Source: an uncultured archaeon
GTDB lineage: Archaea > Thermoplasmatota > Penumbrarchaeia > JASLWR01
Direction: 5' to 3'
Assembly (NCBI GenBank): GCA_964342815.1
Contig: CAYFHS010000006.1
Coordinates: 85,850-149,849 of the forward strand
Length of the DNA stretch: 64,000 nucleotides
Part shown: in pieces, positions 17,050 through 20,779 of the stretch
Numbering within the stretch: the stretch's first letter is position 1
Layout: each line of letters opens with the position of its first letter
The notes under the pieces: generated by a model
Databases searched by the model: none
What the model was told of the DNA's origin: nothing
The model's input: only the letters and a program-made list of their open reading frames with translations
Translations under genes and position numbers: made by a program

Positions 17050-19095
17050 ATGACATTGAATAAACAAAACAGTATATTATTGCTTACGATCTTTCTCCTG
17101 ATCGCCTCGTCGCTTATTATGGGTGACCGATCCGCAGTAATGGGTAATGACGATGTGACTCCGGTTACGGTTCAAATCCTTGCACCGGCGAACGGTACGG
17201 AAGTGAATGGCTCGGTACCGATCGATGCAAAGGTCCTCAACTGTGGCTCGAATTGTACCGGCAACACCTCCATCTACATCGACAAGAAGTTCCAATCCAT
17301 CGGGACAAGATACGATCTTGTGGGTCAGTACGAATATTTCAGACATGAATGGAACACAACGACGGTTGAGAACGGACTGCACGAGATACTCGTCTTTGAT
17401 AAACACAATATCACCTACGATATAATATACCTTTTCGTAAACAACGCGGTCAACGGGAGTTCCATTAGAAATACCAGAATTACATCACCCGGCAACAACA
17501 CGAATATTCAAGGTATAGTGGCCGTTCACGCTGAAGTGCTCACTTGTAATTGCAGTGGGTTATCCTCGCTGTACGTCGACGGGGATTTCATCTCGAACGG
17601 CACTCGAGGGGCCACGATCAACCACGACGGGAGGTGGTGGGAGATATTCAAACATTCATGGGATACACGTACTGTGGAGAATGGTAGGCATACAATAAGG
17701 ATCTACGGCAAGCATCCGGAATATTATCATGAGATCAGCGTGATAGTGGATAACGAGGAAGTTGAACCGAACACAATGATTATCTCCCTGCACAACAATA
17801 CTGAGGTACACGGCAATCAGAGGGTGAGCATCCGGGTAATGGCATGCAAATGCACTGCCCTGACATCCCTCTACGTGGACGGGCTGTTCATCTCCAACGG
17901 GACGAAGGATGGGTCGGTGGGGCTGTACGAGTACTATAGCCATGAGTGGGACAGCACGATGGTGGAGAACGGCAGGCATCTCTTGAGGGCGTACGGAAAG
18001 CACAAGGAATATTACGATGAGATCACCATATTCGTAAACAACACGGACGACGGGTACGACGGGGAAGTGAGAATCCTGTCCCCGGAGATGAACTCGGAAG
18101 TAAAGGGTCTGGTAACGGTGAGGGTCGAGGTCACGAAGGGAAACGTCAGCGGGAACACATCGTTGTTCATTGATGACGTCTTCGTATCCAACGGGACCCA
18201 TGAGCTGAGCGTCGGTCAGTATGAATACTACAGTCACCTCTGGGACAGCACCACCGTCAATAACGGGATTTACCTACTAAAGGTAGTGGGGAAAAATAGA
18301 AAAATTTTCGATGTCATCAATGTTATTGTAAATAATCCAATCGTCATGGAGCATCCCCCCATCCGGATTGTTACACCGACGAATAATTCACAAGTGGAAG
18401 GGATCGCGGCAATAAAGGTGGAAGTATTGGCGAATATAAGTGTTAATACCACCATATTGTACATTGACGATATATTGATGTCAAACGGCATTAGCGAGTC
18501 AAAGATAAATAAGAACGGAACCTGGTTTGATATCTACCTTTATGAATGGAACAGCAAATCAACTTCAAACGGTAATCACGAAATAAAGGTTATCACTGAC
18601 GATATGAGTTTTTTAGATTCTATTACCGTTTTTGTTCTGAATCCATTGGACGAGTCAATCACGATCACCAAGATCATATCTCCTACGAATGGTTCTCTCA
18701 TCGATAATAAAATAACCATCGAAATTGAAGTAATGGTTATTTGTCCCTGCAACGGCACTACGATCATGTTTGTTGATGGGCTCTATTTGTCGAACGGGAC
18801 CTTGCTCGATACCTATTTCCGCAACGATTCCCTGTACGAGGTGTATGCTCACCAGTGGAACACAACATCCATCGCGGATGGATCACATTTGATTCGGATA
18901 CTCGGTAAACACAGGCAATATTTCGATCAAATCACAGTTATTGTTGATAATTCACCCGCAATAAAACCAGTAACGGACGATAATCGATCGTCCTCTTACA
19001 GAATCTTTTCAATCATTTTCGCATCCACAATCGTTGTAATAATATTAATAACAATAATAAGAAAAAAGAAATTCCAGGACGAGTCGCAAAAATGA
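17050..19095 (+). CDS. Surface protein with six ~95-aa bacterial Ig-like (Big_7-like) repeats, four carrying Cys pairs
   Basis: Six repeats I-x-S-P-x-N...G...YVDG...SNGT...H-x-W-D-T-x-x-V-E-N-G-x-H; signal peptide from ATG 17050; C-terminal TM + RKKK. Confidence 0.85.
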   Translation: MTLNKQNSILLLTIFLLIASSLIMGDRSAVMGNDDVTPVTVQILAPANGTEVNGSVPIDAKVLNCGSNCTGNTSIYIDKKFQSIGTRYDLVGQYEYFRHEWNTTTVENGLHEILVFDKHNITYDIIYLFVNNAVNGSSIRNTRITSPGNNTNIQGIVAVHAEVLTCNCSGLSSLYVDGDFISNGTRGATINHDGRWWEIFKHSWDTRTVENGRHTIRIYGKHPEYYHEISVIVDNEEVEPNTMIISLHNNTEVHGNQRVSIRVMACKCTALTSLYVDGLFISNGTKDGSVGLYEYYSHEWDSTMVENGRHLLRAYGKHKEYYDEITIFVNNTDDGYDGEVRILSPEMNSEVKGLVTVRVEVTKGNVSGNTSLFIDDVFVSNGTHELSVGQYEYYSHLWDSTTVNNGIYLLKVVGKNRKIFDVINVIVNNPIVMEHPPIRIVTPTNNSQVEGIAAIKVEVLANISVNTTILYIDDILMSNGISESKINKNGTWFDIYLYEWNSKSTSNGNHEIKVITDDMSFLDSITVFVLNPLDESITITKIISPTNGSLIDNKITIEIEVMVICPCNGTTIMFVDGLYLSNGTLLDTYFRNDSLYEVYAHQWNTTSIADGSHLIRILGKHRQYFDQITVIVDNSPAIKPVTDDNRSSSYRIFSIIFASTIVVIILITIIRKKKFQDESQK

Positions 19096-19132
19096 TTTGA
19101 CTCATCAATCGATATATGGTCAGAGGAAGTAC

Positions 19133-20779
19133 ATGTTTAATAAAAAGGGTCGGCCCTTGGTCGTTATAATCTTGTTTTCTCTAATTATCGTATCCATGAT
19201 CGCTCTACCACTGGCGGCCTATACCTTTGATTTTCTGCCCTCAAGTAGAGATGACGATGATGACACAAAGGATAACAACACCAACTCATCACTGGTATTG
19301 GGGCCTGCACCCGATATAACGCTTTATGACAGGGTCCCCAATGGTTCGATTCGATTATCGGAATATAAAGGCAGGATGATTATATTACATTTTATGAAAA
19401 TAGTTCATTTAGGCGGAGACGAGGTCAGTTTCAATGAGGATAATAAGGCGCAAATAGATATTTTGATCAAGCTCCGTGACACTTATCCCGAAGAAAATAT
19501 TTCTCTCGTAACGGTGTTGGTCCCCAACTGCTGCATGCCATCCAAGGATTTATGGCTCAATAATATATATGACCAATCAGAGATAAGCTGGCACTTTGAG
19601 AATGATCTTTACTATAAGACATCCATGGCATATTTCGACTATATCGGGGATGAAAGCGGTTTATTGATAGAGGATCCTACAATTGTACTGATCGACCGGG
19701 ATTTTAAAATAATCTCGGTCTCGGGTTTTGTGTCGTTTGATAAATTTGATCGAATTATATCCAATTACACAAGGAATGATGGCTATATTAGTGAAGAAGA
19801 CCTTCTTCCTCAGGTCCAACGAACGAAGGATTTCAGCCTTATAAAAGCCTATGGCACGGTTTTTGTTTCCGGCTTTCTCTCAAGCATCGATCCTTGCTGC
19901 ATAGCAATGCTGGTTGTTACCATAATCGTCTTGGAAGGGTTGTTGAAGAATTGGGGCGATCGATCCAGCAATAAAAAAGAGATAATTAAGCGCAAGGGGG
20001 GAAAAAACGATGACCGAATGGAGAGAATAATCGTCGTTTTGGGATTCTGTATTGGTATGGGTATTATATTTTTCATTATTGGATTGGCTGCAGCCTCTCT
20101 TATTTCCTTACTTCCATATTTTCAAAATACTGCTAAATTCTTGATCGGGGCGCTGATTATATTGCTAGGATTAAAATTGCTGAGGGTTTGGTCATTGGTT
20201 TTACGATATACCCCATTCTTAAATAGATACGCTCACGATCATAATCATCATTCCTGTGCCTCTCATGCTCACACTCATACTCATAGTCATAGTTCTTCTC
20301 ATCATGAAAATTTTGACAAGAAATCCAAAACTCAACACGACCCCGATGGATCGAGACTACATACCGCCGGAAGGACTCCCGATGGAATTTCCGATAAATG
20401 CGATTGCCATGAAGGTGACATTCAAGGACGAATGCAGCGTTTCTTCGTTCATCTGAGGAAATATCCTTTATGGACCGCAAGCATAATCGGTGCTGTCTTT
20501 TTTGGAATTCTCGAGATCCCGGGAGATACCTTTCTGATATCACCGTCTGTTTTATTCCTGGTCTCGCTAAAAACTCCGGTGATAATGATTGGTATTTTTA
20601 TGTTCATATTTGGTCTTTCCAAGGGTGCTATTATAATCCCTTTTATAGTAAGTATCGGATTTATAAGACGCGTCATTGATTCAAACCTATGGCAAAGGAC
20701 GGTCCGAAAAATTACAACGCTCTTGGGTTTTTTACTTATAATCTGGGGCGTGTACCTAATCTGGTTGTATAGCTTATAA
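19133..20779 (+). CDS. Thioredoxin-like (AhpC/TSA-type) domain fused to CcdA/DsbD-like 6-TM domain with His-rich loop
   Basis: PAPDITL...LSEYKGRMIILHF and DPTIVLIDRDFKI (Trx fold); SGFLSSIDPCC TM1 pattern; HDHNHH...HAHTHTHSH loop; ATG 19133 behind GAGGA. Confidence 0.75.
   Translation: MFNKKGRPLVVIILFSLIIVSMIALPLAAYTFDFLPSSRDDDDDTKDNNTNSSLVLGPAPDITLYDRVPNGSIRLSEYKGRMIILHFMKIVHLGGDEVSFNEDNKAQIDILIKLRDTYPEENISLVTVLVPNCCMPSKDLWLNNIYDQSEISWHFENDLYYKTSMAYFDYIGDESGLLIEDPTIVLIDRDFKIISVSGFVSFDKFDRIISNYTRNDGYISEEDLLPQVQRTKDFSLIKAYGTVFVSGFLSSIDPCCIAMLVVTIIVLEGLLKNWGDRSSNKKEIIKRKGGKNDDRMERIIVVLGFCIGMGIIFFIIGLAAASLISLLPYFQNTAKFLIGALIILLGLKLLRVWSLVLRYTPFLNRYAHDHNHHSCASHAHTHTHSHSSSHHENFDKKSKTQHDPDGSRLHTAGRTPDGISDKCDCHEGDIQGRMQRFFVHLRKYPLWTASIIGAVFFGILEIPGDTFLISPSVLFLVSLKTPVIMIGIFMFIFGLSKGAIIIPFIVSIGFIRRVIDSNLWQRTVRKITTLLGFLLIIWGVYLIWLYSL

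Follow-up and report, generated by a model that had tools for sequence, protein, structure and literature searches.

A thioredoxin–CcdA fusion without its canonical redox motifs, encoded beside a Cys-x-Cys/His immunoglobulin-like array, as a candidate metal relay of an uncultured archaeon

Two adjoining genes, hereafter designated A and B, were analyzed in a 64,000-nucleotide (nt) stretch of DNA (the window; contig CAYFHS010000006.1 of assembly GCA_964342815.1, positions 85,850 to 149,849) from an uncultured archaeon of the Penumbrarchaeia, the contig being C6 of an assembly of 4.35 Mb that is 89% complete. Gene A encodes an array of six immunoglobulin (Ig)-like repeats, and gene B a membrane protein in which an external thioredoxin (Trx)-like domain precedes a six-transmembrane (TM) domain derived from CcdA. 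We found that B is a full-length homologue of Trx–CcdA fusions, that residues replacing the canonical motifs are conserved in its family, that the Cys-x-Cys pairs of A co-vary with a His and lie with it in two loops of the repeat, and that A and B are syntenic in related contigs. Alignment supports the description of B as a Trx–CcdA fusion without both canonical redox motifs, refitted with Cys-Cys (CC) pairs, with carboxylates, and with a cytoplasmic loop rich in His and Cys. B may be a relay or transporter for metal, derived from CcdA, using thiolate and carboxylate ligands, and possibly served by A, a reading that we favor tentatively and rate a little short of an even chance; the pair, to judge from its residues, probably marks a switch from electron passing to metal handling. 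By kind, B would be a variant of the known Trx–CcdA type, and we infer its function, including metal binding, transport, and an A–B hand-off, from the observations given below.

Descent of gene B and replacement of its redox motifs

Gene B has no Pfam match (direct PF02683 score, 16.4 bits against a cut-off of 27.1), and its other database scores are weak (NCBIfam ArsG, E 0.0026, 17 bits against a cut-off of 200). Just five close homologues were found among 5.8 billion proteins, and no relatives came from scans of genome and metagenome contigs with the B alignment. On the other hand, 45 proteins were reached with B in a profile search of 1.8 billion representatives; the full-length relatives carry the Pfam domains AhpC-TSA/Redoxin plus DsbD_TM/DsbD_2, and two remote ones bear the database name 'cytochrome c biogenesis protein CcdA'. 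Comparison by hhalign of the B family with twelve canonical fusions, which pass PF02683/PF13386, gave a probability of 99.9 and E 3e-37 over 411 columns, and a family-wide profile matched ResA structures (4e-9) and CcdA (5VKV, 1.6e-4) in the PDB. These comparisons indicate that B is a Trx–CcdA fusion homologue over its full length, of the ResA-like kind. The labels 'Trx-like' and 'CcdA-like', given to B in the original prediction, which a model had made from the sequence without database searches, thus lack direct Pfam support but are confirmed by the profile search and hhalign. The kinship to DsbD_2/NicO/UreH proteins that it had proposed was not borne out: B nests instead in the fusions of ResA-like Trx and DsbD_TM, and a NicO/RcnA/UreH-type assignment was rejected, as Pfam NicO was not matched and the score with the RcnA subfamily model (NCBIfam PRK10019, E 0.14; 11.3 bits, the cut-off being 195), which spans TM3 and the His run only, is noise.

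The topology of B, assigned from hydropathy, charge, and sequon distribution, consists of an N-in signal anchor, the external Trx-like domain, TM1, a Lys/Arg-rich cytoplasmic loop, TM2–TM3, a 94-residue cytoplasmic loop, and TM4–TM6, with all five sequons within the Trx-like domain. An AlphaFold2 (AF2) model of full-length B, built with a six-sequence alignment, had a mean predicted local distance difference test (pLDDT) score of 37 and was not used. In domain order, topology, full-length homology, the Pro-Cys of TM1, and the cis-Pro loop, B is like the ResA/TlpA-type Trx plus CcdA pathway (fused forms, e.g., DipZ; PDB 1ST9 and 5VKV). Thus, within a six-TM domain homologous to CcdA/DsbD_TM, Pro254-Cys255 aligns with the canonical P-C, and within a Trx fold homologous to TlpA/ResA, Asp181-Pro182 aligns with the N-P-T loop.

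In contrast, the CxxC that starts helix 1 of canonical Trx domains is absent from B, where its columns hold L-G-G-D or T-x-x-N; hhalign places the lost motif three to four residues after the invariant His92. After strand beta-3, where the canonical forms have no Cys pair, the B family has Pro-Asn-Cys-Cys. In the membrane domain, the S/T-P-C-S/A of canonical TM1 is replaced by Asp-Pro-Cys-Cys, so that an extra Cys is present, and the Thr of canonical TM2 by the invariant Cys306, whereas the W-A-P-C of canonical TM4 has become Glu-Ile-Pro-Gly-Asp-Thr, with Gly464 in the column of the redox Cys in 6/6 family members, Asp behind it, and Glu in place of the preceding Trp. The TM3–TM4 loop, of 30–47 residues without Cys in the canonical forms, extends to 82–88 residues in the B family (94 in B itself as delimited by the topology) and contains 12–16 His and 2–4 Cys, including C-x-C-H. 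The original prediction had noticed the missing CxxC, the vicinal CC, the PCC of TM1, the EIPGDT without a TM4 Cys, and a cytoplasmic-type loop with about 10 His; all are present at the expected positions (Table 1), with 11 His counted in the run at 20234-20308.

The replacement residues of B are invariant across the six family members, down to 48% identity, which argues against decay. Moreover, four remote relatives (P0011, P0012, P0013, and P0017) have also lost the CxxC and have CC or CxC after beta-3, an extra Cys in TM1, and Cys residues in the loop, with the TM4 Cys retained. In a maximum-likelihood tree, midpoint-rooted for drawing only and with P0038 excluded (its C-terminal half looks frameshifted), the B family (100/99) has a long stem and is joined with P0011 and P0013 (92/89), then with P0017, and this group is split from P0012 and the canonical forms at 99/98. 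As judged from this tree, the B family nests within CC-type forms keeping the TM4 Cys. The position of Asp253 is occupied by Cys in the sisters, and that of Glu461 by Cys in P0011 and Asp in P0013; in the loop, P0013 has Cys-Ser-Cys-His at the place of the CDCH of B, and P0011 has 18 His. That Cys, Asp, and Glu replace one another at fixed positions in the membrane (253 and 461) would befit a metal site and would be meaningless for disulfide exchange, and it is the main reason why we prefer a metal function of B to a redox one.

The strongest rival explanation is that B is still a thiol-disulfide shuttle, running from the Cys pair of the loop through Cys255-Cys256 of TM1 to Cys133-Cys134, with the Cys-x-Cys pairs of A as a client that is kept reduced or re-shuffled. 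This agrees with the descent of B from ResA-like Trx plus CcdA fusions and with the concerted change, throughout the CC-type clade, in which CC in both domains and loop Cys took the place of the CxxC and the TM pair; the paired vicinal CC in both domains of B could equally represent a rebuilt disulfide cascade. In addition, the clade member P0017 (L030:7001-13668), which has no CxxC but VCC after beta-3, PCC in TM1, and CPHC in the cytoplasmic loop, is co-directional with the genes of a CcmF homologue and of a surface protein of the Big_7/PQQ-propeller type, with cytochrome b genes opposite, and this operon-like row points to thiol redox. Both observations weigh against a metal relay. The TM4 Cys belongs to the two conserved cysteines of CcdA that are redox-active (PMC10319644). 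Its replacement by Gly-Asp with an added Glu would be of no use in disulfide exchange, the Cys/Asp/Glu swaps among the sisters misfit redox chemistry, and the 15 His of the cytoplasmic loop are left unexplained by a shuttle. Eight-membered vicinal disulfides are, moreover, strained and are not known as catalytic relays in the CcdA-fusion family. With these points taken together, we regard the shuttle as unlikely, though with a real minority chance.

A putative three-station relay and its resemblances

In the metal reading that we favor, B would be a neofunctionalised descendant of an archaeal ResA-like Trx plus CcdA fusion, in which the electron path through the TM1 and TM4 cysteines was abandoned, and would handle a thiophilic or borderline metal ion, with Zn, Ni, Co, Cu, and Cd as candidates. 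An external station in the old Trx cleft may comprise His92, perhaps His86, Cys133-Cys134, and Glu180/Asp181; a second, in the membrane core, may comprise Asp253, Cys255, Cys256, Glu461, Asp465, and perhaps Cys306; and a third, on the cytoplasmic side, would be the His-rich loop with its Cys-x-Cys-His. Since this predicted ligand set is a mixture of thiolate, carboxylate, and imidazole, Zn, Ni, Co, or Cd would be favored over a purely soft ion, with Cu still a candidate. The Zn/Cd/Pb pump ZntA uses CPC plus Asp, and RcnA has a His-rich TM3–TM4 loop.

A common scaffold underlies CcdA/DsbD and the metal-ion carriers of the LysE superfamily, and the B family, together with the CC-type relatives that keep the TM4 Cys, would offer a graded series bearing on how one activity might evolve into the other. 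It is possible, though doubtful as a whole, that we see here a live case of an electron transporter becoming a metal transporter, in which vicinal Cys and loop cysteines came first and the replacement of the TM4 Cys by carboxylates and the His-rich loop followed, the outcome being a three-station relay docked to a Cys2His Ig array whose module has spread through the phylum.

Three known systems resemble the proposed arrangement. In the mercury relay, the metal goes from MerP to Cys24-Cys25 of MerT and then to Cys76/Cys82, and MerE has Cys28-x-Cys30-His31 (PMC5715351). B is like MerP–MerT (MerE/MerF) in the order of an external thiol pair, vicinal Cys in the first core TM, and a cytoplasmic Cys pair, the CxCH of MerE being like that of the B loop. 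MerT differs in having three TMs, whereas the membrane domain of B, of the LysE/CcdA fold, has six and also carries carboxylates and the His run; no mer genes occur nearby, B has no Pfam MerT/MerP match, and the likeness is limited to the arrangement of thiol stations. The LysE superfamily unites CcdA with carriers of Ni/Co, Mn, Cd, and Ca/Mn on a shared 3+3 TM scaffold, and its UPF0016 members have the motif E-phi-G-D-[KR]-[TS] (PMC10319644, PMC4608589). B is like the metal transporters of this superfamily (RcnA/NicO, UPF0016/Gdt1/TMEM165, MntP, and CadD) in its His-rich TM3–TM4 loop and the E-x-P-G-D-T at TM4. UPF0016/Gdt1/TMEM165, however, have the motif twice, whereas B has it once (E-I-P-G-D-T, TM4) and has no Pfam match to them; B scores as none of these carriers, and its nearest relatives are the Trx–CcdA fusions. 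The third system, Cox11/Sco, is described with the repeats of A below. By the comparisons made, all three resemblances are analogies, not homologies.

Paired thiols are also the usual carriers of sulfur and metalloid species, and the A–B pair might instead relay persulfide/polysulfide or As(III)/organoarsenical on them. B has the weak ArsG match mentioned above, and canonical relatives lie in ars-type neighborhoods: in the same class, canonical fusions (L012 of G014, L013 of G009, L016 of G016, and L015 of G040) are found beside a CDF protein with an ArsP_1 permease, beside an LMWPc ArsC-like protein with an ACR3-type SBF carrier and DUF2703, and beside a DGC domain protein, so that Trx–CcdA genes of this lineage are often in metal(loid) company, an association that speaks for the metal reading as well. 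A Rhodanese-PKD-NosD protein is, in addition, encoded near A in the related locus L032. The ArsG score is, however, far under its 200-bit cut-off, the His-rich loop with Asp253, Glu461, and Asp465 would suit cations rather than As(III) or sulfane sulfur, and the window is without ars or sulfur-relay genes; a literature search on ArsG and on metal roles of DsbD_2 yielded nothing usable. Such a relay therefore seems very improbable.

A Cys-x-Cys/His site in the repeats of gene A

Gene A matches Big_7 (PF17957) alone in Pfam (E 3.7e-25, 88.8 bits against a cut-off of 24.1, in five stretches), and six repeats of about 97 residues each were delimited by jackhmmer/hmmsearch. Its eight Cys residues all lie within four C-x(1,3)-C pairs. 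As the original prediction had noted, these pairs occur in repeats 1, 2, 3, and 6 together with a K-H motif, and both are lost in repeats 4 and 5. This co-variation extends well beyond the 4+2 repeats of the window: in 76 repeats of 13 proteins (A of the window, ten further orthologues, and proteins of G002 and G012), aligned to one hidden Markov model, the His of the F-G hairpin is present in 50/50 CxC repeats and in 0/26 repeats without CxC, and no other columns of the repeat alignment than these three show a perfect association. In repeat 3 of the G002/P0063 orthologue, CxC and KH have been lost together, and the four-repeat protein of G012, which belongs to another taxonomic family, has the triad in three repeats and neither motif in repeat 4. 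Judging from these cases, the pattern is no single inherited accident.

Furthermore, a scan of 401 genomes of the phylum revealed that the triad domain recurs as single copies in other classes: with CNC + GKH in a NosD/beta-helix surface protein and in a single-domain protein of 149 residues, and with CDC + PH in a multidomain protein of 1000 residues. A fourth single-copy domain retains one Cys plus KH. The 149-residue protein (L044 of G186, 6693-7142, minus strand) consists of one TM anchor and one triad Ig domain and is the minimal natural form of the module. The perfect co-occurrence, the independent co-loss, and the conservation in distant single-domain homologues support that CxC and the F-G His constitute one composite site. 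An origin of CxC as a by-product of an N-C-S/T sequon was ruled out, as the middle residue is also K, P, D, E, Y, or F and the sequon is often absent. Heme attachment was likewise rejected for the CxC of A and the CDCH of B, neither being CxxCH and the latter being cytoplasmic.

The AF2 model of repeat 2, built with a 47-sequence alignment (pLDDT 92), is all-beta with nine strands; strand B ends at residue 30 with the CxC at 32/34, and strand F ends at 85, just ahead of the KH (87/88) of the F-G hairpin. The B-C and F-G loops of Ig-type sandwiches share one pole, strands B and F facing each other, so that a Cys2His cluster formed by Cys-x-Cys and His in the repeats of A is geometrically reasonable in terms of the model, in line with the prior proposal that these loops lie on the same Ig end. 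Foldseek with the model matched Ig-like domains; these were generic Ig folds alone, offering no metal or triad precedent, which weighs against a metal site, and a PDB sequence search with the repeat profile gave nothing significant. The triad domain is an undescribed subtype of the known Big_7 Ig fold, with no solved or annotated counterpart, recognizable by its Cys-x-Cys...His from six-repeat stalks down to the single-domain protein.

Presumably, A is a heavily glycosylated, membrane-anchored Ig array in which four of the six domains may bind surface metal through a Cys2His site made of the B-C and F-G loops. Should the triad bind metal, archaeal cell surfaces would have in it a new extracellular metal-binding module, which would bear on trace-metal acquisition by anaerobes where sulfide keeps metals scarce. 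Cox11 binds Cu via CysXCys on an Ig-like fold, and Sco binds Cu via Cys2His on a thioredoxin fold (PMC6696091). Both Cox11 (CtaG) and Sco are membrane-anchored, and they have the same two folds and ligand sets as the A repeats and the B ectodomain, respectively. They differ in the positions of the motifs, A has six tandem glycosylated domains, and no heme-copper oxidase was found in the genome (89% complete). A has no match to Pfam CtaG_Cox11, the likeness being the Ig-like fold plus CysXCys only, and no sequence relationship to Cox11/Sco was detected. With regard to the thiol-disulfide shuttle discussed above, the CxC pairs are the only cysteines of A, which lies directly upstream of B, as a client might; the co-variation of the His with CxC, however, would be unneeded by a plain substrate disulfide. 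The Big_7/propeller protein encoded beside P0017 was rejected as an A-type partner, since it has no triad.

Linkage of the two genes and their genomic setting

The two genes adjoin on the same strand with a spacer of 37 nt, as originally noted, containing a GAGGAAG motif and no T-run, and a gene for a surface protein with PKD domains follows. The A-B-PKD block of the window recurs in L001, L002, L033, and one ENA contig; in all five it is co-directional, with gaps of about 37–118 nt, and it is kept although the flanks differ. Wherever the flank is long enough, A is upstream of B (5/5 cases) and the PKD gene comes after A-B; where B is missing, A is directly followed by the PKD gene. In L033, a CbiQ gene (1042-1824) lies upstream and a gene for a NikR_C protein (9874-10254) downstream of the block. 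These metal-related neighbors, like those of A on the P0058 contig described below, would favor the metal reading. The two genes may be co-transcribed in this narrow clade and may exchange metal, with repeat 6, the membrane-proximal one, next to the B ectodomain.

A complex prediction for repeat 6 of A and the B ectodomain gave a score of 0.32 against 0.02 for the best of three controls, although, without a high prior, a complex score of this kind is wrong in the majority of cases. In calibration, the mark was reached by 58/80 solved complexes and 2/110 mismatched pairs, and at scores of ≤0.60 by 7/80 solved complexes and likewise by both passing mismatches. The runs agreed in at least 95% of contacts, with a pLDDT of 84–86 for the partner (the B ectodomain). 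The model thus lends weak support to a direct A–B contact, which would fit an enzyme–client pair, and hence the disulfide shuttle, equally well.

Several observations weigh against a joint function of the pair. In G002, A (L032) is directly followed by the PKD gene with no adjacent B, and the B-like gene P0013 lies on a separate contig beside a glutamine cyclotransferase gene; on the contig of P0058, A comes after genes for FeoB_C and a DtxR-type repressor, again without B; and G012 has an A-type gene but no B-like match. Triad domains occur in unrelated architectures elsewhere, and A-type proteins or single triad domains without B were found in G002, G012, G055, G186, and G051. The site of A is therefore not dependent on B. 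In the same-genus genome G001 (93% complete), neither A nor B was matched with these queries. All A–B pairs come from close relatives within one narrow clade, so that the synteny may be inherited rather than selected. The metal-related neighbors seen in relatives are few and could be due to chance, and in the window no metal regulator, metallochaperone, or metal pump is encoded, the neighbors of A and B all being generic surface proteins. Thus, of the earlier expectations, a conserved pairing stood in five contigs but within one narrow clade, and the idea of A as a metal sponge feeding a transporter B is weak, having gained little from the complex prediction and lost from the occurrence of A and its triad without an adjacent B.

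These observations would be explained if A and B were functionally unlinked, the triad of A being structural (a structural Zn or the like, or a loop staple) and stiffening a glycosylated stalk, B a divergent paralogue (e.g., a sensor or a decaying enzyme), and their adjacency inherited. In favor of this explanation, repeats 4 and 5 fold without the triad, but it does not account for the A-B-PKD block being kept with a short same-strand gap despite rearranged flanks, for the invariance of the new residues of B, for the ligand set of two Cys plus His common to the A repeats and the B ectodomain, or for a complex prediction that is weak yet separated from its controls. We consider it distinctly unlikely.

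That no heme-copper oxidase was found, together with the NiFe hydrogenase encoded in the genome, suggests that the host is an anaerobe whose external thiols stay reduced, in which a thiol-disulfide shuttle would have little to reduce. The genome encodes elsewhere a canonical Trx–CcdA fusion (contig C17; with the Trx motif CGPC, the TM1 motif SPC, and the TM4 motif GC), three DsbD_2 proteins, and cytochrome c maturation genes (on C21), so that B is not needed for the ordinary job. In the fusion on C17 (L017:1480-3651, minus strand, an open reading frame of 723 residues), the thioredoxin domain is preceded by a second TM and by an extracellular extension at the N-terminus that is unusual and about 330 residues long.

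Table 1 Features of genes A and B and of the downstream neighbor (positions in the window)
Feature	Position	Strand	Remarks
Gene A	17050..19095	+	Six Big_7 Ig-like repeats between a signal peptide and a C-terminal TM anchor (19003-19059); basic tail, short; N-glycosylation sequons, 26 (Pfam, jackhmmer/hmmsearch, hydropathy)
A repeat 1	17155..17445	+	CGSNC 17242-17256, K-H 17401-17406
A repeat 2	17458..17754	+	CNC 17545-17553, K-H 17710-17715; used for AF2 model
A repeat 3	17758..18042	+	CKC 17845-17853, K-H 17998-18003
A repeats 4 and 5	18052..18642	+	Fold unchanged; no CxC, no F-G His (GKN, TDD)
A repeat 6	18652..18951	+	Membrane-proximal; CPC 18742-18750, K-H 18907-18912; chain 1 of complex prediction
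Gene B	19133..20779	+	External Trx-like domain between signal-anchor TM0 (19157-19213) and a CcdA-derived domain of six TMs (hhalign, profile search, PDB profile matches)
Trx-like ectodomain	19295..19828	+	No CxxC; invariant His86/His92 19388-19408; Cys133-Cys134 19529-19534; Glu-Asp-cisPro loop 19670-19678; 5 sequons
PNCC in Trx-like ectodomain	19523-19534	+	After beta-3
TM1 motif Asp253-Pro-Cys255-Cys256	19889..19900	+	PCC 19895-19900; canonical S/T-P-C-S/A
Cys306 in TM2	20048..20050	+	Shared by all members of the B family and peculiar to it; canonical relatives have Thr
Cytoplasmic TM3–TM4 loop	20201..20482	+	94 residues, 15 His, 3 Cys; His run 20234-20308; Cys-Asp-Cys-His 20399-20410
TM4 motif Glu461-Ile-Pro-Gly464-Asp465-Thr	20513..20530	+	Gly for canonical redox Cys, Glu for canonical Trp (hhalign columns)
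Downstream neighbor	20858..23518	+	Membrane-anchored surface protein, six PKD domains (Pfam PKD_4, E 2e-53)

Gene A was taken to start at the ATG with which its product, like those of the orthologues, has a signal peptide. Upstream, a gene for an 872-residue CARDB/PKD surface protein (13951-16569, plus strand), with a TM anchor followed by a short cytoplasmic tail with a zinc-ribbon-like CPKC...CISC, separates A from the gene that is its upstream neighbor in relatives. The downstream PKD protein has a poly-Asp stalk ahead of its TM, and both it and the large surface protein encoded at 23837-27754 (minus strand) have long acidic cytoplasmic tails with tandem repeats (units of EEPEVETD and MHEEDQSE[WR]EE[KQ]DS). 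In G012, a single-contig relative, a gene for a Ras/Rab-like small GTPase (L039, 6122-6976, plus strand) adjoins the A-type gene, a slight hint that Asgard-type archaea rather than Thermoplasmatota might include this class. Elsewhere in the window are a gene for a MoxR-type AAA_3 ATPase followed by one for a DUF58 protein (789-3410, plus strand), the usual MoxR-DUF58 pair, unrelated to A and B, and a tRNA-Gly(TCC) gene of 98 nt (37956-38053, minus strand) that, as would suit an archaeal genome, probably contains an intron.

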